The notes: generated by a model not told the origin, from the sequence alone. A stretch of 64,000 nucleotides of DNA from Schmidtea polychroa (GCA_044892525.1 CM097888.1:2914001-2978000); one strand, 5' to 3'; numbered from the stretch's first letter, positions 36,365 to 63,900 are shown. Program-made: numbers and translations.

Positions 36365-36899
36365 GTTTAAAGTCTACATTCTAATTTTTAAATTGGGTAT
36401 TCTTGGGTAGTCTTGGGTATTTAAGGGTAAGGGGAGGCGTTGAGTCAAACAAAAATATAACATTTATTAATGGGGAAATGTAAGTATACAACGCCGAAGC
36501 AAGATTGTGAATTCTTCTGTTATGGAAATAGAATCTTTAAGAATAACTGTTGAATCGTCGGTTCATAAACGGAAACCTGATGACGCTGGAGAAAAGATAA
36601 AGACATACCCTGCTTGAGAAAAACTTATATATGAAATCAATATTTTTACAAAGCTTTTGAAATATATGTAAATATATATTCTTTCTGTGATGGGCTCAGT
36701 GGTGCTACTGAAACATTGTTAGTCTCCAAAGATAATTTCCAAGGGTTTCAAATATGAATGACTTAAGAACATTTTGTTCTTGAAATGGGGGTTAAACGAT
36801 TGAACGTGAATATACAGTCATAATAATTTGTGAAAAACTTAACATTTTTCCCCATAGTTTCACAGCATTAATAAATGAAAAAACTTTTCAAAAAAATTA

Positions 36900-38492
36900 T
36901 TGCTTCATGATATTCTTTGCTTTCTTAATTTCCTAAATAGAAGTATCATGACCATTTACATTTATTGGGTAGTCAATAAGCTGCTCTTCTTCTTTCGTGG
37001 AAAATTCAAGACATTCGTTTGTTCCAAATGGATTCAAAATCCACTGATAAAGGTTGACGTTTAAGGAGGGGAAATAATTGTCGAGTGCTTTCCATGGTTT
37101 GGAGAGCAAGCTCGGAAATGTCATCCTTATTAGCGAATTTATCAACGGTGGGAAGAAAATCAAAGCTTTTTTCCTTAATTTTTCTGATGTACAAGTGAAG
37201 TTTTTCTTTGAATGAAAGAAGCTTTGATGTTGTCGTCATAATATTTTCAGCTGATTCCTGAAGACTCTTATTAAGAACATTGAGTCTGGTTGAAAAGATC
37301 TTTAAGAAAGAAATGATACCTTCAACCACCAGTCACTGTCTCGAAAATCAAAATCGAGTGTGATATCCTCAACTTCAAGAAATGAAATTATTTCAGTTTT
37401 GAGATGTACAACACGCTCAAGAACTTTTCATTTGGACAGCCATCAAACTTCTGTGTGGTAGAGCAGAGTTTTGAAATCAGAATCCATCGCATTGCCAAGA
37501 AGGCCGAAAATTCTGGAATTCAAAGGCTTTGACTATATAATGTTGACGATCGAGACGACTTGATTCATTACAATAAGAAGCTGCAAAGGAATAGACTTTG
37601 AAACTAAAGTTTCTCGGTGAATCATACAGTGTGTGATGGTGACTGATGGGCTAACAAGACGAACCAAGGCCGCGAGTCCTTTCAATTTTCATTGCATACT
37701 CGGAGTGTCGTCTGTACAAACTCCGACGCATTTCTGTTATTGAAGTTGATATTATTTTACATTGTGATCGATCAAGTTGAAAATATCTCTGCCTGTGGTC
37801 GATTCAACTGCTGGCAAAACAAATATTGTATCATTACTTCTGTACTGTGAACGAATCTGATTAATGTAATGAGCTGTGTTTTTCCGCTAATGTCGGTTGT
37901 TTCGTCAGCTTGCAGCGACCAACATTTGGAAAATTCCTCCTCCGAGCTCTGAAAATTCTCGATGATTTGAGATTCAATATCGTTTGATAGGTCTTGAATC
38001 CTTCTTGAAATTCTGTTTTGCTGACAATGGCACATTCTTCAATTTCTTAGCAGCTTCACATCCAGGATTGAGCTAACAATAATCGAAACTGCAGAAACAA
38101 TAACACTTTTAGCTTTTGTGTGTGATTTTTTTTCGCGAGTAAATAAGCTACTTGGAAGCTTGCAATCTGAGCCTTTCAGGAATCTTGCAGAAATTTTTCA
38201 TCTTAAATGCTTGTTTTTCGCTTTGTGTTCGCAGAGTTTCAAAATATAGTTTTGATTTATAAGAGAACCTGGGATGCTTAGTTTCCTTGTAACTAATCAA
38301 TTTATTGGGAACCATTGACGCATTTGACTATGTCTCATTACACACCAGACAAAGGGGAAACTTCTGTCCATTTTTCTCAATCGCAGTGAATCCAAATTCG
38401 ATGAAGTCTTTAGCATATTTTCTTTTCTTTCCGATTTTTTTGGTCACAGAATTTGGTGCTTTAACTGATTTATTCAATAAAATTTTATCCAT
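36900..38492 (-). pseudogene. Near full-length but disrupted Buster/ZBED5/FAM200-like hAT transposase
   Basis: KRKYAKDFIEFGFT...PLCLVC (BED finger), NRISRRIQDLSNDIE, SLQADETTDIS, QYLFCQ, ITHCMIHRE, WLSK, FSTRLNVLNKSLQ. Several stops and frameshifts. Confidence 0.85.
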
Positions 38493-39202
38493 CCTAATAT
38501 AAAATAAACTCGATTATATTATTGTTTACAATTTATCGAAAAAAACTTACTTAAAACTCTGTGTAATCAATATCCCCAGATTGAGCAACATCTCGCCTTG
38601 CACATTTAATTTTTGGTATTTCAGTAAATTCCTTTTTTTCGCCAGTCTCGAACAAGCATCTCTTTGACGTTATTTTCTCTGGCAGCTTTTGAGTTGCCAT
38701 TAATCTCATCGAATTCCACCACTCGTAATTTAAATCCAGCTTCATAAGAATTCGGACCTCGTTTCATTTTTGCACTGCTCTGCACTAGCTTGTTCAGTTT
38801 TTGATAAAATCAATCTGATTGGAAATAATATGTTGTCAAGTTTATTATTTGTCCGTTAATGATGCTTGAAAATATTTTTGAATAAATTACAATTTTATTA
38901 AGAATTTTAATTTATTTAATTGATTATTTAATAAAATAATTATTGAATAATTAAAAAATTAACATTACAAATTATAACCAATTTAATAATTTCGTTAAAA
39001 ATTAATTTGTACTTTTTTGACCCGCGTATAAGTCAAAGTGGCAATTTTGAATTGAAAAATTATCTTTACATATTTTGTCATGCCCTTTACCTTAATTCCC
39101 AAACTCCCAAAGCTCCTTATATTTTCAGTTAAATTAAAAATTCCAACAAATCATAACACAATAATATCTATTAATGTCATTGTTAGATATAATTCTCATC
39201 AA

Positions 39203-42830: not shown

Positions 42831-43537
42831 GGGGTCAAAACATCCTGTCGGATAAACTCAGAGTATATATAATAAAACTGATCAACAATAAGTATTTATT
42901 GAATGCGATTTTGTCATTGCAATAATAAGTCAGTAGTAATCAATTAAAAGAAGAATGTTTTGTAAATTAGAATTCTAAAGTCTTTCATTTTAAATTAAAT
43001 TATTGTTGGGGTCACACCTCGGCTGACCATTCTACCATGTTGGCGGGTCTAAGGGTTGATTGTCCATCTCGAATAAAAGGTGCCACCGATTTGTCAACCT
43101 GGAGTGAAACCCCACATAACTTTCTTCCAACATAGTGCCCGTGAATCACTTCACGTTGGTACTGCACTATGCAGGCGAGACGCCAGCAAGCAGGTGAGCT
43201 TCTGCCTTAAAACTACTCCTTGCTGAGGCCTCGACTTCCCATTCACGACTGCCGATAGAAGGGCTTACGTCCATTTCCTTACACAACCACCTATCAGGAT
43301 TCGCTGAATGCAAATTGGGAAATTCTCACTAGATCTTGCGGGTCCTCTTCTCAACCCACTTAATTAAAGTCTAATTATTCAGGAACGAAAACGTGTAAGA
43401 CAACAAGATTTATTAATTTCAACGTTATGACACAAGGATTCAGCTGTACACTTTACTAATGTTTGTCGAAAGAAGAGAAAACATCATAATCAACATAGAT
43501 CGGATCCTTGTTCCTCATCCTGACCGCCACTGGGGTT

Positions 43538-44326
43538 TTATTGTTTCTCCCATTCAGTGTCGGCGAATAATTCGTCGAGGTTGAAAAACTCGGAAGCGTT
43601 CTCTTCCCACCTTACGCCAGCGGCTGATATGATTCGCGCTGAGGGTCCCGTTGTTAGGTCGATGGACACGTGAGAGTTGCCACCGTTAGTTGAGTCCTCT
43701 ATTGATGGGATGTTTGGCTTTGCAGTAGCGCGCTCGCGCTGTCTCTTCTTGCGCTCTGCACGAGAGAGTTGTTTGCGCTTGGGTTTGCTTGAAGATGCCA
43801 CTTGCAGAAGGGTGACTGATACAGATGGACTAGCAGTGGGGGGCTTACTGGTACCCGTGATGACAACATCTGGACGCTTGGGGGACCATTCGGTTTCGAC
43901 GCAGTCTCGGCACGGTCTCTTGAACGGTGGAGATGGATTCGAGGAAAGGTTGTGATGAGGCGGAAAGATGTCATCGGCCTCTCGGATGGGAATCTGCACG
44001 ATTTTTCGGGTTGTAGCCGCCTGCACGTAAACCTTATGCAGTGCCTCGGATTGTTCTCTGATTAGACTTCTTTGGGCACGGCTCTCAGATATTAGCGCGT
44101 CCCGGCAATGCTCGCTACGATCGAGCTTCTTTTGGATCTCTTTCATCCGAGCGGGACTAAACCATGTCCCTTCCAGCTCGTCTATCTTCCTCTTGTAACG
44201 TCCAATCTGAGTTTGTAGGTCCTTTATCACCGTATTTTTATCCGCGCACGAGAAGCATGGCCGTAATGCCGATTTAGTGGTTGGTAGCATGCTTGCTATA
44301 AATAATACTAATGAAATGGAGAACAT
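43538..44326 (-). CDS. Unknown protein: CxxC, coiled coil, second CxxC, basic NLS-like tract, acidic/aromatic C-terminus; probable start ATG 44290
   Basis: 262-codon ORF containing PCFSC, PCRDC, KPKRKQLSRAERKKRQR and EFFNLDELFADTEW. The stop overlaps AATAAA, and acceptor TTATTTATAG lies 5 nt before ATG 44290. Confidence 0.65.
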   Translation of the reverse strand: MFSISLVLFIASMLPTTKSALRPCFSCADKNTVIKDLQTQIGRYKRKIDELEGTWFSPARMKEIQKKLDRSEHCRDALISESRAQRSLIREQSEALHKVYVQAATTRKIVQIPIREADDIFPPHHNLSSNPSPPFKRPCRDCVETEWSPKRPDVVITGTSKPPTASPSVSVTLLQVASSSKPKRKQLSRAERKKRQRERATAKPNIPSIEDSTNGGNSHVSIDLTTGPSARIISAAGVRWEENASEFFNLDELFADTEWEKQ

Positions 44327-46374
44327 ACGATTTTAGAATAAATTAGATACGACCCGCGTCCATTCGTGGATACTTGACCGTCGAAAAGAAGGAAAACTTA
44401 TTCTACAATCCGGTTTTACTACGGATCTTAGTTGTTAAAACAGTTTATTTAACCAAATGCCCTCGGTTTGACGCATGTTATGAACTTTGACTATCTATTG
44501 ATCTAACTGTATGCATGAGGGACGTAATAATTGATAGGGTGTAAATATAATATTGGTGAAACAATATAATAATGCTTTAGTAGAGGGACATTATAGTATG
44601 CGACCAAACCTTGCTATATGTTATCTATTTTAATTTATTAAAAACAAATTACTATCGCTCTCAACATATTTTTGATTCGAAATTTGTTATTGGAAGTGCA
44701 CTTTTAATTCGGTAGTGAATGTGATTATCTATGTTGTCTACCATTGGTCTGAAAATATGTGATGAGTTTACATCAGCCATTACTTTAACACCCTCATGGA
44801 AAATCCCATCGGTCATAACATATCCAAATTTACGGATACTGCTGTCGACTGGTTGATTACGTTATCGACCTATTGTGAATGTCACGTGTCGCGACTACTA
44901 TGTATGCTAGTCTGATATTCTGTGCTCTCACCGCATGGATTCGTGTATGGCTACTATCTTATCTCACTCACTTGGTGTATGCCATTTTCACGGTGATTTT
45001 ATCGATCCTGCTGTCGTATGATTTTCTCTGCACAGTGATTTATTTGAGTTATGATTTATGCTACCGCCAGTTCTCATCGCGGAATTTTACCCTTATCAAC
45101 TTGTGTGAATGATCACCATCGTTTGGAAATTTATTGGATCTTTTCAGTGATCGTCGAGGGAATAATTCTACCAAATACTGGAGCATATTACTACTCTCGT
45201 CATTCTACTCGGATTTTCCTATTCAGATGTAATGCCGTCTCGATGAAACCTGTCCTTTTCTCTCAGGTTCAATAATTTGGATATATACAGTGATGACCTG
45301 GCTCTTATTGTAGAAATAAATGTTATTAATTAAATTTGGTGATATTTTACCTGTTTATAATTTTTGAAATAACTAAGTCTATAAAAACTTTCTGATTATA
45401 ATACTAGAGAGGTTTTCGTAGAATCTCGTATTTTATAGTTTCGAGTTAGTTAAAGTTTTTAGAATACTTTCGTAACCTGACATACAATCTGGACAGGTTA
45501 GATGACATTGGGTCTATGATAATGGAATTTCATACGAATTTAGTTCTACTGAGTCCGGCAAATAGACGTTGTCGCAATTAATTTGATAAAACCATGTTTC
45601 CAGATGAAGCGTACTATGAGATGTTGTTATTTTTGACGAAGTTCACTAAATCGTGGTCTGGATCTCTTTTTTCAATAGGGGTAAGACTTACGAAAACGAC
45701 TTGACGAAAGAAGAATGCGACGCCCTCAATCACTGTGCAAATCCTTGAAAATCCCTTCATTCGTATGACTATCTTTGTGAAATCATTGTCTACCGGTTAT
45801 TTTTTATCCATACCCCATTGTGATAATTTAGTCGCATCTTCAGCGATAGGACCCGTGAAGAAGCCTTCACATTTCGGCCCAATCTAGCTGCGCGATTGAA
45901 ATACTCCATGTCCACCGGCTGAGCTCCCGAAGGCACCTCATACCATGACATGGAGTATCTCAACTCCACGTTACTCGTTAAATGAAAATTCATAAAATCT
46001 TTAATTCAAATAAAATACGGACATCTGGATAAAAATATTTTATTGATTCTGAAATACTTAAATAATACAAATTCCATCAATACGTTAAAGTTATTAAAAT
46101 GGAGAATCAAATGAAGAGAGTTAACTAAAATGTTTAATCGTTAATATTTAACATTATTATTAGCTTTGCAAATACTTAAATAAATCTATAAACAAATGAA
46201 ATACCCCTTACTATTGTTAGGCTGAGTCAAAATTCAATGTTGTTCGTTCCAAATAGTTCTAATGGTGGTCCGTTGGATGTCGATTATTGTGATGAATGGT
46301 ATTTCGGTCTCTGAACTGGTTTTGAATAGTCGTGGAGTTTTCTGAATGACGGTTGCTTGGCTAGTAGTGTCGAT

Positions 46375-46453
46375 CCTATGAAATGCTCGGGGTTAACAGT
46401 AAAAACAGTAAACATTCTTTCTTACCTATGAAATGCTCGGGGTTAACAGTAAA
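46375..46453. repeat. 29-bp direct repeat in the putative 3' UTR/LTR
   Basis: CCTATGAAATGCTCGGGGTTAACAGTAAA at 46375-46403 and 46425-46453. Confidence 0.9.
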
Positions 46454-47071
46454 TTTAATGTTTTTGGTAGTTGTATATATATCAAATTCTTATTTGTGCG
46501 GACCAATCAGAGTTGAGTACCGCTTATTTCTATTAATTTAATATAATTTTCTTGTTTTTAGGTTGTTTTTTCCTTATTTTCTTTATTTTTAATATGTTTT
46601 TCTATTTATTTCCTTAATTTCCTTATTATTTCTTGAATTCCTCTTTATTTATTTGTCAACTTGTTCTATTTTAATCTTTTCTTAATTTTATTTTTTTTGT
46701 TTTAATTCTTATGTCTTAATTATTATTTTCCTTATATCTTATTCTATTTTATTTCTGATTTTATTTATTTTATTTTTATTTTTCTTAATGTTCTACTTCC
46801 CTACTTTCTTATTTTTCAACGATTAAATTTTCGACTCAGCCCAACAAATCACTCGGGGACCCATCAAAATTGCGTCCCGCAATTGCATAATTAACTTAAT
46901 TCATTCATTCAAAAAAAATATAACACGAACACGGAAAATTATACAACAATGATAAAAATTTTATTGTAAGATCAAGGTCAAAGCAAGACCAAGCAAGTAT
47001 CACTTAAGGTGATAGTTGGTACATACAATAAAAGTTTCCACATATAATAACACAAATGTTTGAATTAGAGT

Positions 47072-47740
47072 TTATGAATTGTTAACCATTGATGCTTCTG
47101 CTGGCGGCTGTTGGTTGGTTTGGGTATTGATGTTGAGATAGGTCTGACTATTAGATTTCGGCTGGATTGGTTGATTACTCGGGGTTCGAGGTCGGAATGG
47201 GGTTGGGTTAAGATTTGTCAGGGGCACTTCTTGAGGATTTTGGTTCGAGGTTACTCTTATTGATGTCGAGATTCTACATCTATTTCGAACTTCGTAAATT
47301 TTCATGAATATTGGTAGACATAGGAGGAGGGTTTCTGCGATCACCACATATATGAGATAATGGGCGTTATTGATTTCGGGAGGTATTTTTGGCTTTTCTA
47401 CCAGATTTCCAAAATTCTCTTGTTGCATTTGTTGTTCCAACTGGTCGAATTGTTGAATTTGTTCGAGGATTTGTTTGTTTATCATTTTACAAATGGGATT
47501 CTTTTTACACATTGTTTGGATGTTGTTGATGTGTGATCGGGTTGATTGAATGGTTTGGATGATATGGGTTTTTACGGTCATCGGGTATGTGCATTGACTG
47601 GATTCTTGTTTAGGTTCTTGATTTTGATTTCGGTAATCTCGTACGATTTTCGGTTGGGCGTCTATTTGTTTGCTCTCCATCAGAATCATCAATACCATCA
47701 TTGTTATCATCATCTCGCCTCGCATGATACTATTATACAT
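47072..47740 (-). CDS. Accessory type-I membrane protein (signal peptide, Gln-rich helical ectodomain with 3 Cys, TM, Pro/Gln/Asn-rich tail)
   Basis: MMITMMVLMILM signal-like segment; YLIYVVIAETLLLCLPIFM TM; probable ATG 47725. Confidence 0.75.
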   Translation of the reverse strand: MYNSIMRGEMMITMMVLMILMESKQIDAQPKIVRDYRNQNQEPKQESSQCTYPMTVKTHIIQTIQSTRSHINNIQTMCKKNPICKMINKQILEQIQQFDQLEQQMQQENFGNLVEKPKIPPEINNAHYLIYVVIAETLLLCLPIFMKIYEVRNRCRISTSIRVTSNQNPQEVPLTNLNPTPFRPRTPSNQPIQPKSNSQTYLNINTQTNQQPPAEASMVNNS

Positions 47741-47780: not shown

Positions 47781-48533
47781 TTAATGGTTCTGATTTGGAT
47801 TATTTTCGCCGATTCTCATCAAGGTGGACTCTGCTTTAATTACCCTGTGTCTTAACTCGGGCAGCATTTCCAATTGTCGGTCTTTTTCGCGGGCTTCTCT
47901 CTTTAGATGTCTAATTTCTTTTTCCAAGCGTCTAATTTCTTCCCTTTTCTTTTCAAGGTTTCTTTTTAGCTCGATTTGTAGGAGATCTTGTTCGTTTTCT
48001 TGCAGGTAATTTTGTTGTTGATGTTTTCTTTCTATTTCTCTATATTTGCGGACCCACTTCCTCATTTCTTTACTTTCCCGTTGGTTTTCTTCTAGTTGTC
48101 GTTTTAATTTATTTATAGCTGTTTGGCGCTCCTCCGCCTCAGTTTTCCAGTAGTCTTGGATTACCTCCTTTGCTTTGAAGCTTGCCCTCTCTTTCCATAG
48201 TTCTTCCGCTATCTTTTCCCAGTTTTTCCCTCGCTTCCTTTGTTCGTGTAGCCATTCATTTTCCTCTTCCGTTTCTCTTTTTATTTCCCCCAACGCTTCG
48301 CACTCTTTCTTTAACACCTTTATCATTTTCCGGTCCTCTAGGTATTTGTTTATTAATCTCCCGTTTTCGTATTTCTCTTCCCGTAACTCGGCCTTTAGCG
48401 TTTGTGTTTCTGTTGTTTCTGCCTCAATCTCTCCCTCTTCTACGTCGCTCATAATTTCTATCATTTCCTCGATTTTCATATCTATAATATGTACAGTTAA
48501 TGGTGCGCTATAGTGCGACTTATACGTATACAT
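47781..48533 (-). CDS. Accessory coiled-coil protein
   Basis: 250-codon E/K/R-rich heptad ORF; probable ATG 48479. Confidence 0.75.
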   Translation of the reverse strand: MYTYKSHYSAPLTVHIIDMKIEEMIEIMSDVEEGEIEAETTETQTLKAELREEKYENGRLINKYLEDRKMIKVLKKECEALGEIKRETEEENEWLHEQRKRGKNWEKIAEELWKERASFKAKEVIQDYWKTEAEERQTAINKLKRQLEENQRESKEMRKWVRKYREIERKHQQQNYLQENEQDLLQIELKRNLEKKREEIRRLEKEIRHLKREAREKDRQLEMLPELRHRVIKAESTLMRIGENNPNQNH

Positions 48534-48588
48534 TGATATAAAATTTAATAGTTTGGGTTACAGTCCCTTGAATACTTTTACAATACTT

Positions 48589-48591
<3 letters not shown>

Positions 48592-48628
<37 letters not shown>
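48592..48628 (-). repeat. A37 tract on the element's sense strand
   Basis: 37 consecutive T on the plus strand between two accessory ORFs. Confidence 0.95.
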
Positions 48629-48677: not shown

Positions 48678-49787
48678 TTATACGAAGGTTTCCTCCTGGC
48701 CTACATAACCTTCATCACTATCGACCGCGGGATGTAACTGTATCGCAATAGGGTCGTATGGTAGGTAATATTGGGGGATTTGAGCTCTCAATTCATTAAT
48801 TTCGTCTCTTAGAGCTCGAGTGATGTTCAATTCCTCGTCGAGCAGATAGGTGAGATACCTTGTCTCTTCGTCTTTCGCCTCTATCTGTTTGTCTAGGGCC
48901 TTGATTTTCTCGTCGCCCTTCCATTTTTCAATTTCTATTTCTAAGTTTTTAATATTTTCGGTGTACATTTTCCTTTCGTTTTCTAATTTTCTGTTTTTTC
49001 CCGCTAGGACCATGTTTCTTTGTTCCAGCGATCCTTGTAATCCATTAAGGTCTCTTTTCATCTCTTCTACCTGATTTACTAATTCCACAACCCGTCCCGC
49101 TTGTTGGGTTATCATCTCTTCCATTGCGGCATTCTCGTGCTCTCTTATGTCGCACTTCATTGCCAAATGTCGCTCAAACTCCATAGCCTTTGTTTGCCAG
49201 GTTTGGCTTCGGGCGGCGACCTTTCTCAACCTTTTCAATTCTTCCTTTATTATTAAATTCTCCTCCCATTTACCTTGTTCGCTTTCATATCCGAGTCTCA
49301 TGGGCAATTCTTTCATCTCTTTTTTCATTTCTCTGTTTTGTCTTTTCCATTTTCTCGCTTCTGCCACTAAGTGCATCATTTTCCTGTCTTCTATTTGTTT
49401 TTCCGCTTCGCGCTTGGTGTTCTCATCGGTAAGTCTTTTTCTCGCTTCCTGCACTAGCTGCTTTAAGTAGTGGCTGTGTGCTTCTTGGCGGGTATTTTCT
49501 AGTGACGCCCATTTTGATGCTCTTTTGCATGCTTCTGCTTCCGCTCTTAAGTTGTGTATTAACCATTGGTATTGACTATTCTCATCTTCTCTAGTTTCTT
49601 CGATGTGATTTCGGGTGAGATTAGTTAGTTGGAACATTACTTTGTTCCATTTTTTATTATGTTCTCGGGGAATTTGTGTCTTGTTGACATTGGTTGGGGC
49701 TATCGCAGTTTCGGTTATTTTCTCTTGTGTCATCTCTAAATCATAGACATCGATTAATCTTTTTATTATGAAAAGGAATTTATTCAT
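48678..49787 (-). CDS. Accessory long coiled-coil protein
   Basis: 369-codon heptad-rich ORF; probable ATG 49733. Confidence 0.8.
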   Translation of the reverse strand: MNKFLFIIKRLIDVYDLEMTQEKITETAIAPTNVNKTQIPREHNKKWNKVMFQLTNLTRNHIEETREDENSQYQWLIHNLRAEAEACKRASKWASLENTRQEAHSHYLKQLVQEARKRLTDENTKREAEKQIEDRKMMHLVAEARKWKRQNREMKKEMKELPMRLGYESEQGKWEENLIIKEELKRLRKVAARSQTWQTKAMEFERHLAMKCDIREHENAAMEEMITQQAGRVVELVNQVEEMKRDLNGLQGSLEQRNMVLAGKNRKLENERKMYTENIKNLEIEIEKWKGDEKIKALDKQIEAKDEETRYLTYLLDEELNITRALRDEINELRAQIPQYYLPYDPIAIQLHPAVDSDEGYVGQEETFV

Positions 49788-49925
49788 TATTTACTGTTTC
49801 TTGGGAAATTTTCGCATCATTTTTGGGTTTTCGTATTTAGGGTTTTCATACTATTATTATATAATATTTTATTGGTTATATACACCGATATATACAGATT
49901 ATTATATACAACATTATTCGATTGG

Positions 49926-51314
49926 TTACTCCGTTCTACCCTTCTCCTCTTTCCTCACGGTCATCTTGATATATATGGTATCATTTCTCGCCATATCTTC
50001 TACTCTTTGTTGTGAGATGAACGTAGGTGCTCCTGTTGCTGATCCTTCTTCGTTGAGGGGCCTCTGGTAAGCTATTTGATTCCCCGTTGTTTTGAAGCTT
50101 TGCTCATGTATACTTTGGTTGTTCATCAGAGTAATATCGATTTTTGCCTGGAACGGCCATTCTAATATTTCGTCGTATTCTCCTTTACATAACAGAAAGA
50201 AAATCGAAAAGTGCGTATCCAATCCGGTTCCGTCCCCGTTGGGATATACCTTCATTTTCATTTTGTACCCATTTTTCCAAGAATGGAATGTAGGACTTGT
50301 TATTCTTGTCTCTTCTCCGGTTTTTGCTTTTCGTATTCTTTCTTTTACTCCCGTTATTTTCCATATGTAGGGTGCTGTTGGGGTTATCTCATTTAGATTT
50401 ATTTCCCGTATTTTCTGATGTAGCTCCTTGGCCTGATTATTACTGATTTCTGTTCGGTTTATTTGCATCTTTATGTTTGCTCGGGCTTCTTCGAACGCTT
50501 CCCTTTCTTCTAGTAGTTCTTTGACTAACACTTTCAACGATGTTATCTCTATCTCCATTTGTTTTACTTTCTCTTCGCTTTCTTGTAGCGCAGTCGACCA
50601 CATTTCTGCGTGAGTTGAAGCATTTTCTACTAAATGATGTGGTAACTCACCTCGGTGTAGTAGTTTCTGACAACCCCATCTACCTAGTACACATGTCATT
50701 CTTTTCTTTGCGCATTCCCTTAGATGCTGTGCCACCTTCATTATTTCCCCTTGGTTACATCCGTTTGGGCATTCCCCACTGAACTCTGCACATACTCTCT
50801 CCTCTTGGACATTGTGATGTTTGAGGGTGAGATTTATCCACGTATCTATTTCTCCACAGTGTTCACATCTTTCCAATCTCTCTTCACACTGCCTTTGATG
50901 CTCTTTTTCTTCGCTTGCTCGAATGGTTTTATGGCACCTTTCACACTGGCCAATTCTGTACATACATTCTCCCATATGTTGTACTACCTTCCATATTACT
51001 CCTTTCCATTCGCATGGGGCATTTTTGCATCCCAGGTTGGTGTTTAACATGTCTTTCACTGCGGCTTTATCCTCGTTAGTGTCTTCTAAACTCGATATTA
51101 GTGTCTCTTTACACACCGGGCACCTCTGTGGTCTATTCTTTATTGCTTCACTGATACATTCTTTACATACTCTGCATCCACATTGCGTTTGGTGAGGTTC
51201 CTTTAACAACTTTTCACATATTCCGCACATAACATGTTTGTGTATTCTGATCGTTGTAGATTTTCGGACTTGCTCGACAATCTCTCTGAACTCTTCTCTT
51301 TGTCGTTTATCCAT
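49926..51314 (-). CDS. Full-length intronless TRAF-family protein (RING, TRAF zinc fingers, coiled coil, MATH)
   Basis: RING CGICEKLLKEPHQTQCGCRVCKEC...CPVC; fingers CKNAPCEW..HMGEC, CERC..HQRQC, CEHC, CPNGC..HLREC, C..GC..H; MATH PYIWKI...SPTF...GYKMKMKVYPNGDG...HFSIFF...GEYDEILEWPF. Confidence 0.95.
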   Translation of the reverse strand: MDKRQREEFREIVEQVRKSTTIRIHKHVMCGICEKLLKEPHQTQCGCRVCKECISEAIKNRPQRCPVCKETLISSLEDTNEDKAAVKDMLNTNLGCKNAPCEWKGVIWKVVQHMGECMYRIGQCERCHKTIRASEEKEHQRQCEERLERCEHCGEIDTWINLTLKHHNVQEERVCAEFSGECPNGCNQGEIMKVAQHLRECAKKRMTCVLGRWGCQKLLHRGELPHHLVENASTHAEMWSTALQESEEKVKQMEIEITSLKVLVKELLEEREAFEEARANIKMQINRTEISNNQAKELHQKIREINLNEITPTAPYIWKITGVKERIRKAKTGEETRITSPTFHSWKNGYKMKMKVYPNGDGTGLDTHFSIFFLLCKGEYDEILEWPFQAKIDITLMNNQSIHEQSFKTTGNQIAYQRPLNEEGSATGAPTFISQQRVEDMARNDTIYIKMTVRKEEKGRTE

Positions 51315-51399
51315 TCTATAATTATATGTACAAATAGTTCTTATCGATACAGGTTCGATATTTTATTTACAATTATTTACATTTTAAGCTAGGTTTGGT

Positions 51400-51919: not shown

Positions 51920-54900
51920 CTATATACGTGAGTTTGGAGGGCGCTGAACGTTCCAGGCCTCCACCCACTGTCCTTGTTTGATATCACTTGGTCGTTTCAC
52001 TCGATGTTGGAAGTTTCTGATTCGGGTCATTTCTAGTTCTCCGCGATGTCGTTTATCTTTAATTATTTTTATTGTTCCCCCCGTTATGATTAGGAATGCC
52101 CCTGTTATTATTATCCCACTGATCCACATCATCTGCTTCACGCTTATACTCTCTGGTTTTTCCTTGTTGGTTAATGTTGATATCGCTTCTGTACTTTTCT
52201 CGTTTCCTCTTTTGCCATTTCCTTTCATCATTTCCCGTATTCTTGCTATTTCCTCGTTCATACCCTCCTTTGCCATCTTTTGTATTTTTTCCATCTCTTC
52301 CTCCGAAACATAGTTGTCCTGAGCTTCCTCACCAGTTTTCTTGTGCTTTCCTCCTTCGTTCTTTTCGTCGTGGTTTTTTCTTTTCTTTCCTCTTTTCCCC
52401 GGGTATCGTCGGCATTCTCTTTTTGATTCAATCCTCCAGATACAAACCGTGTATTCTTTCGGCGGCTGCTGCTGCGTCACATATTGATGGCATCTCTCAC
52501 CTGGTCCTAATCTTGAAATACAGACTTTGTGCTCTTTTCTAGGTTGGATCTGCGTTATTACTACTTCACCACCTTTTCCTAGGTGTACCTCTTTTCCTTT
52601 GACGTTCGTTATTCTCTTCCCGTCTCGATTTCGGTATGCTTCTTGTATTCTTACTTCTGTTATTGGTTCTGTGTCCTCATTTATCAGTACTAGTTTCTGA
52701 TACGCTCTAGACATGCATCTTCCTAGTATGCACCTTTCCTTTAAGTCCCATTCTTCCTTTAAATCCCACTGCTGCTCTTGTGCTTGCTTTCTCTTTTCTT
52801 GTTTTAGTTCATCCTCTTTGCTATCTTGATTCTCCGCTTCTTTGGTTTCTTTTATCGTTCTCGTCCCTCCCTGAGCTGTTACTAACTCTATCATGGTAAG
52901 CATAATTATCATTAATATCATATTTGTCTCTATTTCTTTGTTAGTGAAAGGTAGGCATACCCTCTGTTTTCCATTATTCGATTTTTCCTCCTCTTTGGTC
53001 TTGGTTCTCGGGCTGTTTCCCTCTCTTTTCGTATCCGAATCCTTGTTTTCTGGTTTACCCTCCTCCGGTTCTCTTTTCTCTTTATCCTCCTTTCGGTCTT
53101 TTCCGTTATTGTCATCGTGTTTATCTCCCTCGCTGTCATTTAAAATGTCGTCCTCGACATTTATATCGTTCAATAATCTGCGATATGCTGTTAGCACTCT
53201 GTTTCTTGCTAATTTTGCTTCGAATTCAAACTCTTTTCTACCCGTTGCAGCATGTCTCTTTCTATTCCATTCTTTAACTAACTCTCTCAATTGCATACGA
53301 CGATGTTTCCCAATTCGTTGTTGCTCGTTCTGATTTTGCGTGAATTTTAGGTCTTCTCTATTTAATACTATTAAAATAATTTTAGGCGTCCCCCCCTTAG
53401 TTAGGGTATTCTTTACCATCGCATTTTCTCCGTTTTCGTAGAATTCGTTTACATTTATCGCATATTTATTATTTGGTGGTACTCTCCAGGTTAATAATAA
53501 TTTCATTGCTTCTAGATTTTTCCGTACTGTATTCCATTGAAACTGAGATGTGTTTTTGCACATATTTTCAACTTCTTCTTCTGTCGCATTTTTGCAAATA
53601 AATCTGATCATTTCTAAGTTTGGCTGTATGGTTGCCCAGTCCAAGGTGGAATTTCCTTCATTGGACCTTTCGTCTAGTTTCGATCCTGATTGATGTAGGA
53701 TGTGGAGTGTTTTTGGGTGTATTTTCGTTATAGCTGCATACATCATGGCGGTTTCACCTTGTTCATTTTTCGTGTTGGTTTCCTCGCCCATCTCCCCAAG
53801 GATTCTCATGATCGTTATTGTTCTATTCTCTTTTGCAGCTAGTATTGCTTGTTGTAGGGGTGTTCGGGAATCCTTCGTTACCATCGTAAATGCTCGAGGC
53901 AAGAAGGTTTTGATTTTCCCGATATCTAAACCCGTGGTTTGATCTCTTGCGTATGTGTGTACGGCTTTTATTATTTTGGACAATATTATTTCGTCTGGCA
54001 GCTCTAGCATTTCCTCAAAGAACACTTCTTTTGCTTTGCGTATTATTGCCTCTTGATCTATACTCATTGATTTGGTTTCGATGACGTTGTTTGTGACCGT
54101 TCGGTTCGTTGTTGACTTTGATTCCCTGGATTTCTCATACCTTATTTTCGTTTTCTTTCCGTTTGGATTATTGATTCGTTCCTCTGCTGTAAGTATTTGG
54201 ATAATATCCATGTAATTCTCGCGGATGTTATTCATCGTGTCCATCATATATAACACACTTACTGTTTCCCAATATTTATGTCGTACTTGGTTAGTAAATT
54301 GGAATAGTGATTTTTCGAATGTGTCGATTCGCTTTTTTTTTAACTGTTCGTCTTTGTGATTTGTGAATTTTATCCCTCGTTCTAGTAATTGATTCGGGAT
54401 TTCGAATAAATGATGTCCTTTCATAGCTTCTCTCATCAGCGTGTTCTCTCCTCTCGTGAACGCTTCGTTTACGTTGATCATATAATCGTTTCGAATTGGA
54501 TTTCTCCATGTAATTAATATTCCGGTAATTGTCGTCAGTTTTTCTTTGATCGCTGTTAGCAATCCATCATACATGTTTCCGACTTCCCGATTGTCCTCAT
54601 ATGATAGTAGTTCCATCAATGACGTGAACGCCTCGGTGCTTCTCCCTCTGATAGCATGATGTAGAGCGTTTTTCCGCTCGTGGTCTTGTGTAGTTATTTT
54701 CGATCCGGTATCGAGTAATGCAGTTATAATGTCTTTTGTTTTGCCTCTGTTTGCGGCTATCATTAATGGTGTGTAACCTTGGTTGTTTGTTTGTTCTGTT
54801 GATCGCTTGCAGTCGTGAAATGCTTCTATTGTTTCTAGTATTTGCTCGTTGTTACCTACTTTCATGAGTTTGTGTAATGGTGTGTCTCCGTAATGATCTG

Positions 54901-60900: not shown

Positions 60901-63900
60901 TATCACAATCGTAGATGGTGAAACCTGTTGCTCCACTTGTGCACAACATCCATATCATCATAGTCATCATTAACGAATTTATTGATGCTTTTCTGCTTGC
61001 GGGATCTTTCATCGGTAGTTCCCATTCTAGTTCATTTAACAGTTTTTTCAATCTAACTTGCATCGACCTTTCTTGCTCATTTTTCCGTGGCGCTTGTATC
61101 AGTCTTTTCCATCCTCCTGCACGAATAATGTGTGGTTCAATAGTATTCTCTATGATTGAAACGGTCATTTCTACATGATTTGCAAACTGTTTATTTGGTA
61201 TTTTCCTCGCAGCTAGTCCCATCAAATTATACATCAAATAAGTGATTACCACTAGGTGATGCTCGTCATCATTTGCATTTGTCGTGAGCTGCTCAATCAC
61301 TCTCTTTGTTTCGTCCCAATCCGTTTTGGTGGTTTTCGTTTTCTCTTTGATTAACTTTGGGATTATCCCCGAAATGGTGTGCCATAATTGTCTAGCTTCC
61401 GTACTGGCTACTTTCCGTTGCCACAGACGTCTAAGTTGTGGGTTTGTTATTATTAACATATCTTTTAACAATTCTCGTATCCATTTTTCTCCTCTTTCGA
61501 TCGTTGGTTGGGCTTCCTTTAGATCCCATACTATTTTATCCAATTTTTCTAATCGAACTTGCCCTTGTTCTTGCTTTAATTGTTCTTTGGTTTTGAACTC
61601 AGACTTTTCTCCTTGTTTCTTGGGTCTTCCTTTTGCCCGTTTTTCCATCATCGTTCCTGCTTCTCTGGTATTTTCGTAATTCGGATTTCTTTCGTTATCC
61701 GTTCTGGGTAATGAGCTATCGTTATTTCTTAGCCACTCATTCCATTCGTCTATTATTTTGTCGGTTTGACTTTCTGGTGTTACTTTCGTTGGTTCTCTTT
61801 GCTTCTGGAATTGTTCATCCGTTTCGGTTTCCGTAGTATTGTCGATGATTTCTTCGATGTTCAGTTTCGTTGGTTGTTGATAACTCGTTGATGGCTGGTT
61901 ATTAGTCCACATTTCGGCTCCTGTCGGCCATCTCACTAATAGCGGTGATCTTTCTCCTGGTTCATCGTCACTATCTTCCAGGATTATCTCTTCAACTTCT
62001 TCAGTTTCATTAGATTTACTTGGTGCTTTGTTCGGACTTGGAGTACTCAAACTGCCTTTTGTTGGTTTAATAATTTTACTTTTCCTTTTTAACGGTTTTC
62101 CCAACGTTTCTGCCATTGTTAATACATTTGTCTCTTCCAATCTCATGGGGGTTATCCCGACGTCTGCATTATCGTCTAGTGATTTTCCGAACAGTTGCAG
62201 ATGGAATGGAGTTTCATATGCTAATTTCTTTTTTAATTCTCTAATTTTTGTTGTTGGATGCACCTCTAGTTCCTCGATGCTCTTGTCTGGATACTTGATT
62301 CGGATGTGATACCTCTCCTGGGTGTCTTGTGCCCATTCCTGATTTCTCCATTTTCGAATAATTTGTTCTAGCTGTTCTGGATACCATTCATTATATTGCC
62401 GGTATTCCTCTATTGCCTTTGCCATTCCTCTCAGATTGTGGATGTCCTCTGATGTCTTTAAGATGATGTTAGCCAACGCTACTACTTGGCGTCTTTGATT
62501 TTTCGCTCCCATTGCTAAGATATCGCCTAATTGTTTATATCTTTCTTTCTCTTCTCGTTCTCTTGCTTCCGTCGCTTCCTCGCCGTCCATATCAGCATAT
62601 TCACGTTCCTTTTTCCTCATTGCATGAATATGTCTCGCTTCATTTTCGCTTTCTGATGTGACATCCGTCTCGCCTTCGTCATCTGATGTCTGTTCCCTTG
62701 CTTCCTCTTCATATTTTGGAGGTTCCTCTTCTTCTTCCTCCGATTCACTTTCTGTCTCACCAATGTCTGTTTCCACGAAGGTTCCTTTCCGGATTTCCCA
62801 TTCCTTACTTTCTGCATTCCACACTCTTTCCCATGGGGTTCGTCTGCAGGATCTGGTGCTTAATTTCGTGATTTTTCCTTGTAGTTCTTTTTCTTTTAAC
62901 CATTGTTGGTGGATTTTAATTATTTCCGTAGATTTTTGATATAACGTTTTCATCCGGTCTCGTATTTCTTTTTGATAGGTTACATCTCTTGTTCGAAATT
63001 CATCCATTGGTACTATCCTGATTATCTGGTGATTGTCCCACATACCCATTTCGCTTAACGAGGTGTCGTCCTCCGCTCGTAATATTATCTTATCGTACAT
63101 CATGACTACATCATCCACCATACCATCACTACTTTCGCTACGTACCTTTTCCGTTATCTCTTGGTTTATTTTTGATACCAAGTCATCTACTGTACTCTGA
63201 TTGCTCATTTTTATTCGTCGTTTTTCTTCGTTCGGTAACCATATGGTTATTTCCAACCTCTGTGGCTGGGTTTCTTTTAACCTTCCATATTTGTGGATCA
63301 AATTTATGGTTCTCCAATCACTCATTCGGAGCATTTCTGTATCTCGCAACCGGCTCATTAGTTCGTACATGGCTGGGGCTCGTCTGGTGATGAGTAAATC
63401 CCAGTTGTCTTCTACTTGTTCTTGAATTTGTTTGATCAGCTTATCCAGGTTTCGTCTCAGAGTACATTGTTTTATTTGTTCTAATTTCAATTTGATATTA
63501 AAATCATATTCTGCCTTGGCATCTTTAGCCCAATCGTAAAGGTTGGCTGGTTGTTTTTCTTTATGCAACTTCAGTATTTGCGTTTCCCCTGGCCATATTA
63601 GTGCATCTACTAAGTGCATATCTGGTTTGATCGGTTCTCCTTGGTATTGATACAGATATTCTTTCTTTCTCGAACTTCCCAAATGCTCTCGTATCCAATC
63701 GAAAAGTTCGTCGGTGACTGTATTTTTTATCCACATTCTTTCAAGTCCTCTACTCGTTCCGATTTTTATTACATACCGCGTGGTATCGGCCTGCTTCATT
63801 TTTTCCATATAATTTTTTATAATTGATTTTTCCTCGTTTGGTATTAAATCTTTCTCGTTTCTTTCCAATTTCATCACTTTTTGCACGAATCGCCTGAATG

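Follow-up and report, generated by a model that had tools for sequence, protein, structure and literature searches.

A genuine full-length TRAF is confirmed on the minus strand at 49926-51314 of a 64,000-nucleotide stretch of Schmidtea polychroa DNA (hereafter the window; C4:2914001-2978000 of the 781-Mb genome), where it is carried by a Burro-type gag-env-pol Gypsy element. The gene is multi-copy and under purifying selection. Selection shows that the TRAF matters to the element but does not name its pathway. The reading that we prefer, with a confidence slightly better than even, is that this selected multi-copy Burro TRAF was captured once, is likely spliced, and bends host death or immune signalling so that the expressing cell survives.

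The TRAF gene and the element that carries it

A stop-free minus-strand frame runs from 51362 to 49926, with an ATG at 51314 and a TAA at 49928-49926, and encodes 462 aa (Table 1). The RING was matched by Pfam PF00097 (E = 1e-4) and has all eight zinc ligands (C30, C33, C45, C47, C50, C53, C65 and C68), and the MATH domain was matched by PF21355 (E = 2e-27) and PF22486 (E = 3e-27) over residues 316-453. The zf-TRAF model had no match in the TRAF in the Pfam search, and the fingers rest on alignment: five C/H clusters at residues 96-227 line up with the fingers of other TRAFs, and 16 of the 20 finger ligands are at least 90% invariant in the alignment (n = 91 TRAF sequences). The AlphaFold model (mean pLDDT 93.5, pTM 0.52) contains the RING, the fingers, a 74-residue helix at 232-305 and the MATH sandwich, and its best Foldseek matches are the TRAF domains of TRAF1/2/3 (E about 1e-17). 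The earlier claim, made from the DNA without database searches, of a complete single-exon TRAF with RING, zinc fingers, coiled coil and MATH was thus borne out.

The closest solved structures are the C-terminal parts of TRAF3, TRAF2 and TRAF1 and the RING-finger parts of TRAF6/5/2. The element TRAF has the RING-finger-coil-MATH order of vertebrate TRAF2/3/5, with solved-structure matches to coiled coil plus MATH at E about 1e-27; the vertebrate proteins have a C3HC4 RING and a serine-rich receptor-binding loop, whereas the element TRAF has neither. In its MATH peptide pocket the GYKM.K.YPNGDG strand is retained, NQIA replaces the serine-rich loop of TRAF2/3, and the peptide-binding loop reads TTGNQIAY, compared with PDxxSxxY in hosts. 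Because this loop is unlike those of both TRAF2/3 and host TRAFs, the partners of the element TRAF may not be receptors.

Table 1 Features of the TRAF gene, the element that carries it and the sister-element IAP. Positions are those of the window unless a neighbouring or other stretch (L021, L044) is named.
Feature	Position	Strand	Remarks
Target-site duplication TTAT, 4 bp	43000..43003	.	Second copy after 5' LTR in L021
3' LTR, 3,843 bp	43004..46846	-	100% identical to 5' LTR at L021 4929-8771
LTR-internal 264-aa frame	43538..44332	-	Basic, arginine-rich stretch
Accessory ORF, 222-aa frame	47072..47740	-	No Pfam match
Accessory ORF, 258-aa frame	47781..48557	-	No Pfam family above cut-off
Poly(A) tract, 37 nt, sense strand	48592..48628	-	Between two accessory ORFs
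Accessory ORF, 370-aa frame	48678..49790	-	No Pfam family above cut-off; dN/dS about 0.07
TRAF coding sequence, full-length	49926..51314	-	462 aa, single frame, intact
MATH / TRAF-C, residues 316-455	49950..50369	-	Pfam, solved-structure matches, Foldseek
Coiled coil (TRAF-N), residues 232-305	50400..50621	-	AlphaFold model
Five TRAF-type zinc fingers, residues 96-227	50634..51029	-	Alignment and ligand conservation
RING, residues 30-68	51111..51227	-	C4C4 type; Cys47 at canonical His position
AT-rich tract ending YAG one base before TRAF ATG	51315..51340	-	Splice-acceptor-like
Doubled TGTAAATAA motif with AATAAA 53 nt before ATG	51355..51385	-	Poly(A)-signal-like or forkhead-site-like
Accessory ORF, ~119 aa	51400..51759	-	Directly upstream of TRAF; dN/dS about 0.10
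Polyprotein, 3' part, 4,026 aa	51920..64000	-	Frame runs on into L021, where Gag lies
168-aa frame with C-terminal IAP-type RING	L021 4104-4607	-	PF13920, E = 4e-11; between primer site and gag
Sister-element IAP	L044 7543-8718	+	One clear BIR, degenerate second BIR by eye, RING

The gene has the polyprotein stop (51920) on one side and the 3' LTR on the other; a location within the LTR was ruled out, the gene lying 3 kb inside the element. The 5' LTR and Gag are contained in L021, the neighbouring stretch beyond the window end, and from its coordinates the element has a total length of 29,768 bp. Its LTRs have TG..CA termini, and because they are identical the window copy is very young, its insertion being very recent. 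An 18-nt primer site complementary to the host tRNA-Pro(TGG) starts seven bases past the 5' LTR. No polypurine tract was found directly before the 3' LTR in the inspected positions 46847-46870, where the sequence presumably resembles the complement of a tRNA 3' end. With an LTR pair, a target-site duplication, a primer site and a polyprotein flanking the TRAF, its proposed residence inside a retroelement is upheld. The tRNA-Pro(TGG) genes, which supply the primer tRNA of the element, form a long tandem array with a 475-bp period on C1 from 130.90 Mb (L110), and the tRNA-Pro(TGG) motif occurs 1,658 times genome-wide. The 264-aa frame in the LTR is 100% identical in the LTR at L035, and the flank outside the element at about 36600-38500 (minus strand) holds decayed transposase-like DNA, 94% identical to L022 6911-7510.

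In sense order the element consists of an LTR, the 168-aa IAP-type RING frame, the polyprotein, the 119-aa ORF, the TRAF, three more ORFs and an LTR. The polyprotein, which also includes a 706-aa frame reaching the L021 edge, carries Gag with zinc knuckles, a fusion glycoprotein (PF24664, 5e-70), RVP, RVT_1, RNase H and rve in this order, together with ankyrin repeats, so that env lies in frame between gag and PR-RT-RH-IN in one polyprotein of more than 4,000 aa. A Pfam search returned no match for a MATH domain in the polyprotein of the window element. Near 61082-61681 (minus strand) there is a Bcl-2-like stretch, weakly supported and below significance: it had no PDB sequence match, and Mcl-1/Bcl-xL recur among its Foldseek rows, but at E of at least 0.9 on a model of pLDDT 51. 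At the C-terminus of the polyprotein (51920-53000, minus strand), two hydrophobic stretches surround a cysteine-containing region, as in a second membrane protein. The poly(A) tract between two of the accessory ORFs may stem from the tail of a captured mRNA; its length seemingly varies between copies, the alignments breaking there.

A PF21355 search was used to survey other TRAF/MATH loci of the genome; among the best 150 of 1,551 first-look candidates, 31 stretches were fetched and checked, and these fell into four kinds. The first comprises seven full-length TRAFs of the host (at L023-L026, at L028 and two in L030), each a single frame of 454-487 aa that lies in AT-rich DNA away from any Burro polyprotein, and the second is a host cluster, mostly on chromosome 2 (C2), with RING and MATH in separate exons. 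The third kind is a 487-aa element TRAF that is 29% identical to the window TRAF, lies downstream of a pol that is ~60-67% identical, and directly precedes a BIR+RING IAP in what we call the sister element; the fourth is a MATH in frame inside a 4,791-aa polyprotein. Motif copies numbered 238 for the 487-aa TRAF and 126 for the in-polyprotein MATH. On contig C1, a 487-aa TRAF motif follows 11-14 kb downstream of 39 of the 52 MATH motifs that lie within polyproteins. One Burro1-like element type therefore carries both forms, and the idea that these are separate families was ruled out, most belonging to one element. The sequence-only reading had also taken the lack of introns as a sign of cargo, host genes being intron-dense. 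This argument does not stand, since seven full-length host TRAFs are likewise single-frame and lack of introns therefore cannot tell cargo from a host gene.

The sister element has a homologue of the 119-aa ORF at the corresponding place. By comparison, the RING gene lies upstream of gag here and downstream of the TRAF in the sister, so this cargo has moved or been re-captured. The 168-aa RING frame is devoid of a BIR, and its RING is about 32% like the RING end of the sister-element IAP, whose closest named matches are mollusc IAPs. A complex prediction for the sister TRAF coiled coil with the BIR, run without alignments, scored 0.00 and is given no weight in either direction.

The TRAF ATG is preceded by a YAG in 68 of 68 copies, with the variants TTATAG, TTGTAG and TTACAG. 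Among the accessory ORFs of the two elements, a YAG lies 0-4 nt before the first ATG in six of nine (three ORFs of the sister element and, in the window element, the upstream RING, 119-aa and TRAF ORFs); in the other three it stands before the second ATG. These figures compare with 45 of 320 background ATGs (14%) and 10-15% in shuffles. Such conserved YAGs before accessory ATGs suggest that the accessory ORFs are expressed from spliced subgenomic mRNAs. The doubled TGTAAATAA motif also precedes the TRAF of the sister element, and A(A/T)TAAA occurs 25-75 nt upstream in seven of eight spacers, where chance alone would place it with a frequency of 19-68% in each. Integrated copies of a spliced TRAF start were looked for as well, and the five matches each have element DNA upstream and an intact YAG. 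Contigs of runs that are only guessed to be RNA cover the TRAF region and the flanking DNA, with no clean splice joint in them, which tells in neither direction. Spliced-leader trans-splicing has been reported in Schmidtea (part of PMC12582326). On our preferred reading the TRAF mRNA would be made via the acceptor at the start codon, being either cis-spliced from an LTR leader or spliced-leader trans-spliced.

What the element TRAF may do for its carrier

To our knowledge, captured full-length TRAFs are otherwise recorded only from large DNA viruses. The element kind itself is known: Burro1/GYPSM1 and Burro-2 to -4 are giant Gypsy-like LTR retrotransposons of Schmidtea mediterranea, Dugesia tigrina has a Burro-like element, and Burro cargo of MATH_TRAF_C, BIR, ankyrin and BCL2-like motifs has been proposed to meddle with apoptosis and ubiquitination (part of PMC6431247). 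The window element, which was compared with the named Burro-1 to -4 by description only, resembles them in its length of ~30 kb and its LTRs of several kb, in a single very large polyprotein that has env between gag and pol and includes PR-RT-RH-IN and ankyrin repeats, and in having cargo either in frame or in accessory ORFs. Of the described cargo, ankyrin and TRAF are present in the window element, BIR is found in the sister element only, and the Bcl-2-like stretch is weak. In the parts of that source on which we draw, the described elements have MATH_TRAF_C alone, which lies within the polyprotein in Burro1 and in an accessory ORF upstream in D. tigrina. The window element differs in having a complete gene with RING, five fingers, coiled coil and MATH downstream of the polyprotein, and the sister element has both an in-polyprotein MATH and a stand-alone full TRAF. 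The Burro TRAF described here is therefore fuller than the MATH/TRAF-C cargo of these descriptions. In the literature covered, to which Grohme 2018, Jurka 2007 and the PMC6431247 figure do not belong, no full-length TRAF was found described for elements of this type, and the word TRAF is absent from the main text of PMC11410931 and PMC13524379.

That a whole TRAF is selected in two 29%-identical lineages beside IAP, ankyrin and reported BCL2-like cargo argues for modulation of host death or immune signalling. On this preferred reading, a planarian host TRAF would have been captured once, long ago, by a Burro-type element. Its product would trimerise through the coiled coil, as TRAFs generally do, and so serve as an adaptor; it would act either as a signalling adaptor or E3, or as a competitor of host TRAFs. 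The IAP-type RING, Bcl-2-like and ankyrin cargo would act alongside it on survival or immune signalling, and the outcome would be survival of the cell that expresses the element. Planarian TRAF knock-down leads to more cell death and to lysis (parts of PMC7586133 and PMC8807557).

ISKNV ORF111L of a megalocytivirus resembles the element TRAF as a virus-carried gene with RING and TRAF domain that is nearest to TRAFs of the host lineage and concerned with death signalling. It differs in its length of 296 aa, in belonging to a large DNA virus, and in that TRADD binding and caspase-8 apoptosis have been shown for it, whereas the element TRAF has 462 aa and five fingers and travels in an element with an RNA intermediate. 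Since this fish iridovirus TRAF binds TRADD and triggers apoptosis, promoting rather than blocking it (part of PMC3352826), the effect of the element TRAF could be in either direction.

A serious rival, although one that we hold to be less likely than not, is that the TRAF serves the replication of the element itself, as a ubiquitin ligase or scaffold for particle assembly or for removal of a restriction or silencing factor. The second MATH is fused in the sister's Gag-Env-Pol polyprotein and could be packaged, the binding loop has moved away in sequence from that of TRAFs that bind receptors, two RING genes are present in the element, Burro polyproteins contain ubiquitin-like domains (part of PMC6431247), and purifying selection fits this role equally well. 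Against it, both 29%-identical lineages have retained the signalling-TRAF layout of RING, finger, coil and MATH, and the TRAF travels with IAP, ankyrin and Bcl-2-like cargo, all of which are linked to death or immunity. A broader proposal, that Burro elements are complex retrovirus-like agents whose spliced, operon-like cassette holds regulators of death and immunity taken from hosts (TRAF, IAP, Bcl-2-like and ankyrin) and forms one signalling module, is unlikely and is put forward as speculation. With the present gene, the TRAF cargo of Burro elements changes from a domain label to a whole gene with measurable selection, and the published idea that these elements meddle with apoptosis and ubiquitination becomes directly testable in a model animal.

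Origin and relation to the host TRAFs

A protein search with the TRAF gave 2,627 matches; the 10 best full-length ones were looked up, six were named, and four of these six, including the top match, are planarian TRAFs. The planarian host TRAFs compared (Dendrocoelum lacteum TRAF-2/-4/-5, Dugesia japonica TRAF2-like A and Smed-TRAF-2A/B) share with the element TRAF the length class, the domain order, the C4C4-type RING and a single coding frame. They are ~24-32% identical to the element TRAF, the closest aligned one being at about 32%, and differ from it by its A-rich, element-type silent sites and altered loop; more than 150 dispersed copies of the element TRAF stand beside a handful of host loci. 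The C-for-H change in the RING was present in 20 of 20 ingroup rows (planarian and element) and in none of the five outgroup rows.

Planarian and element TRAFs form one branch with a support of 98/91 in the full-length tree and 99/99 in the MATH tree, and quick trees with each element type added singly kept the planarian placement, while a grouping of the elements with the non-planarian TRAFs of the outgroup was not rejected (p-AU 0.06). The careful MATH tree had 30 rows, near-duplicates being left out together with the long-branch rows P0092, P0045, P0032, P0024, L027, L029, L031 and the second frame of L028; for P0092, a long-branch TRAF, the best matches in the S. polychroa genome are host TRAFs. 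The three element MATH types group at 94/89, unstarred, and element types A and B group at 87/83 in the full-length tree, with a long-branch warning. Host paralogue clades include Dendrocoelum genes, and the element branch falls outside them, which, given the long branches, suggests a very old capture. Because the unusual RING is common to planarian host TRAFs, the capture was probably ancient and from the triclad TRAF lineage. We infer a single capture, followed by a duplication within elements that gave rise to the stand-alone TRAF and the in-polyprotein MATH.

The sequence-only reading had proposed that retrotransposition drives part of the host TRAF expansion. On this account the element would be a source of host TRAFs, domesticated copies having built part of the expansion, including its intronless members, which we regard as improbable. 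The seven host full-length TRAFs are single-frame like retrocopies and have the C4C4 RING, a sister position of the C2 host cluster to all element MATHs was not rejected (p-AU 0.35), and the host sample is 23 MATH rows from the 1,551 first-look candidates. In the quick tree, however, none of the 23 sampled host MATH rows was nested inside the element clade. The C2 cluster forms one clade of its own (100/99, MATH tree), has split RING and MATH exons and host-type silent sites, and its grouping with the window-element TRAF was rejected (p-AU 0.042). Element neighbours are still present beside the TRAF in each of the 68 family copies examined, and two older copies show decay. With 156 dispersed copies in element context and a young insertion rather than a single fixed locus, the family does not have the pattern of a domesticated gene. 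The element appears to swell TRAF counts, and a role as the seed of the host expansion is not supported.

As judged from the table of matches, element copies account for ~94 of the best 150 genomic MATH matches (of 1,551 candidates), and at least 520 MATH-bearing motif matches are element-borne (156 + 238 + 126). Element context should therefore guide a re-sorting of the numbers given for the TRAF expansion in planarians and of the traf mRNAs listed as piRNA targets. The planarian TRAF/MATH expansion has been reported in PMC6109357 and PMC7586133, in the consulted parts of which no element explanation is given, and SMEDWI-3 piRNAs degrade many traf, ankyrin and E3 mRNAs (part of PMC6824462). 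These piRNA-targeted traf mRNAs may be linked to Burro cargo. If Burro elements are indeed retrovirus-like agents with one signalling module, as in the broader and unlikely proposal above, a long-standing conflict between them and their host would go some way to account for both the expansion of TRAFs in planarians and the degradation by piRNAs of mRNAs for traf, ankyrin and E3 ligases; some of these mRNAs may come from elements or be driven by them.

Copies of the element TRAF and selection on them

A conserved 20-mer of this TRAF has 156 exact matches in the genome (control, 0), which sets the family size at 156 copies or more. All 40 scored DNA matches are 99-100% identical. Among the MATH matches, the 150 best scored are all at least 82% identical, and for 131 of them the surrounding frame is free of stops over at least 470 aa. 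A sample of 68 copies was examined, 19 from the DNA search and 49 from the MATH match list, mostly open-frame rows. The 119-aa ORF is upstream of the TRAF in 68 of 68 copies and the next downstream ORF is present in 67 of 68; a polyprotein lies upstream in 48 of 49 long loci, the remaining one (L060) being a 5'-truncated fragment. The TRAF is thus repeated cargo of the element, with 156 motif copies, and neither single-copy nor a neighbouring host gene. Its frame is single and open in 67 of the 68 copies, a sample biased to open-frame rows, for which 131 of 150 is the fairer figure. Eleven copies had seemed broken by indels or a stop, and 10 of these proved to be alignment artefacts. Two older relatives, at 59-71% identity, have stops plus a frameshift or deletion and are decaying.

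Pairwise dN/dS (Nei-Gojobori) had a median of 0.146 and a range of 0.08-0.26 for the 38 copies with dS above 0.05, all compared with the window copy as one shared reference, so that the values are not independent. These low ratios hold out to dS about 0.8. By region, dN/dS was 0.11 for the RING and fingers, 0.13 for MATH, 0.15 for the ankyrin region and about 0 for an integrase piece. None of the eight RING ligands is lost in more than one of the 68 copies. These data establish purifying selection on the TRAF, and from this selection the protein is probably functional. Four-fold sites agree between the TRAF (A 0.51, T 0.11) and the polyprotein (A 0.52, T 0.12), whereas all nine host TRAF frames measured differ (A 0.32-0.44, T 0.26-0.41), in support of the A-rich strand bias that the TRAF had been said to share with the polyprotein. 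The claim of long residence in the element is likewise supported by these element-like silent sites, the 29%-identical sister TRAF in the same slot and the purifying selection.

One alternative is that the TRAF is kept mainly for host benefit, for example as extra doses of a survival or immune adaptor in stem cells, with the element tolerated. Host TRAFs are essential for cell survival (part of PMC7586133), and many copies are intact. We nevertheless hold this to be very improbable. The pN/pS of the TRAF is 0.13 for variants common to at least two distinct copies and 0.41 for private ones, which are thus ~3 times more often amino-acid-changing, as in the ankyrin region (0.13 shared, 0.44 private). 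Constraint on shared and relaxation of private variants indicate that selection acts mostly during element replication and relaxes after insertion. Burro1, moreover, is PIWI-silenced, and Burro1 RNAi brought no improvement of the smedwi-2 knock-down phenotype (part of PMC8532177). That the TRAF is a passive passenger, either a host gene transduced only recently or a relic evolving neutrally, is effectively refuted by the selection data, and the distance to the nearest aligned host TRAF and the fully element-like silent sites also tell against it, although the intactness of the window copy is itself uninformative at so young an age.

Several copies have structures of their own. Internally deleted copies retaining the TRAF were seen at L009 (4212-4389), L066, L056 and L096, and in L009 the 5' LTR end and primer site abut the last 0.7 kb of the polyprotein. 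Same-strand TRAF pairs about 26 kb apart occur at C2:177700228/177726440, C4:46257198/46283379 and C4:69865757/69892041, the spacing expected for tandem elements with a shared LTR. In L054-L062, neighbouring genes of one copy differ in their divergence from the window copy (e.g., MATH versus the whole TRAF), which suggests recombination between subfamilies.
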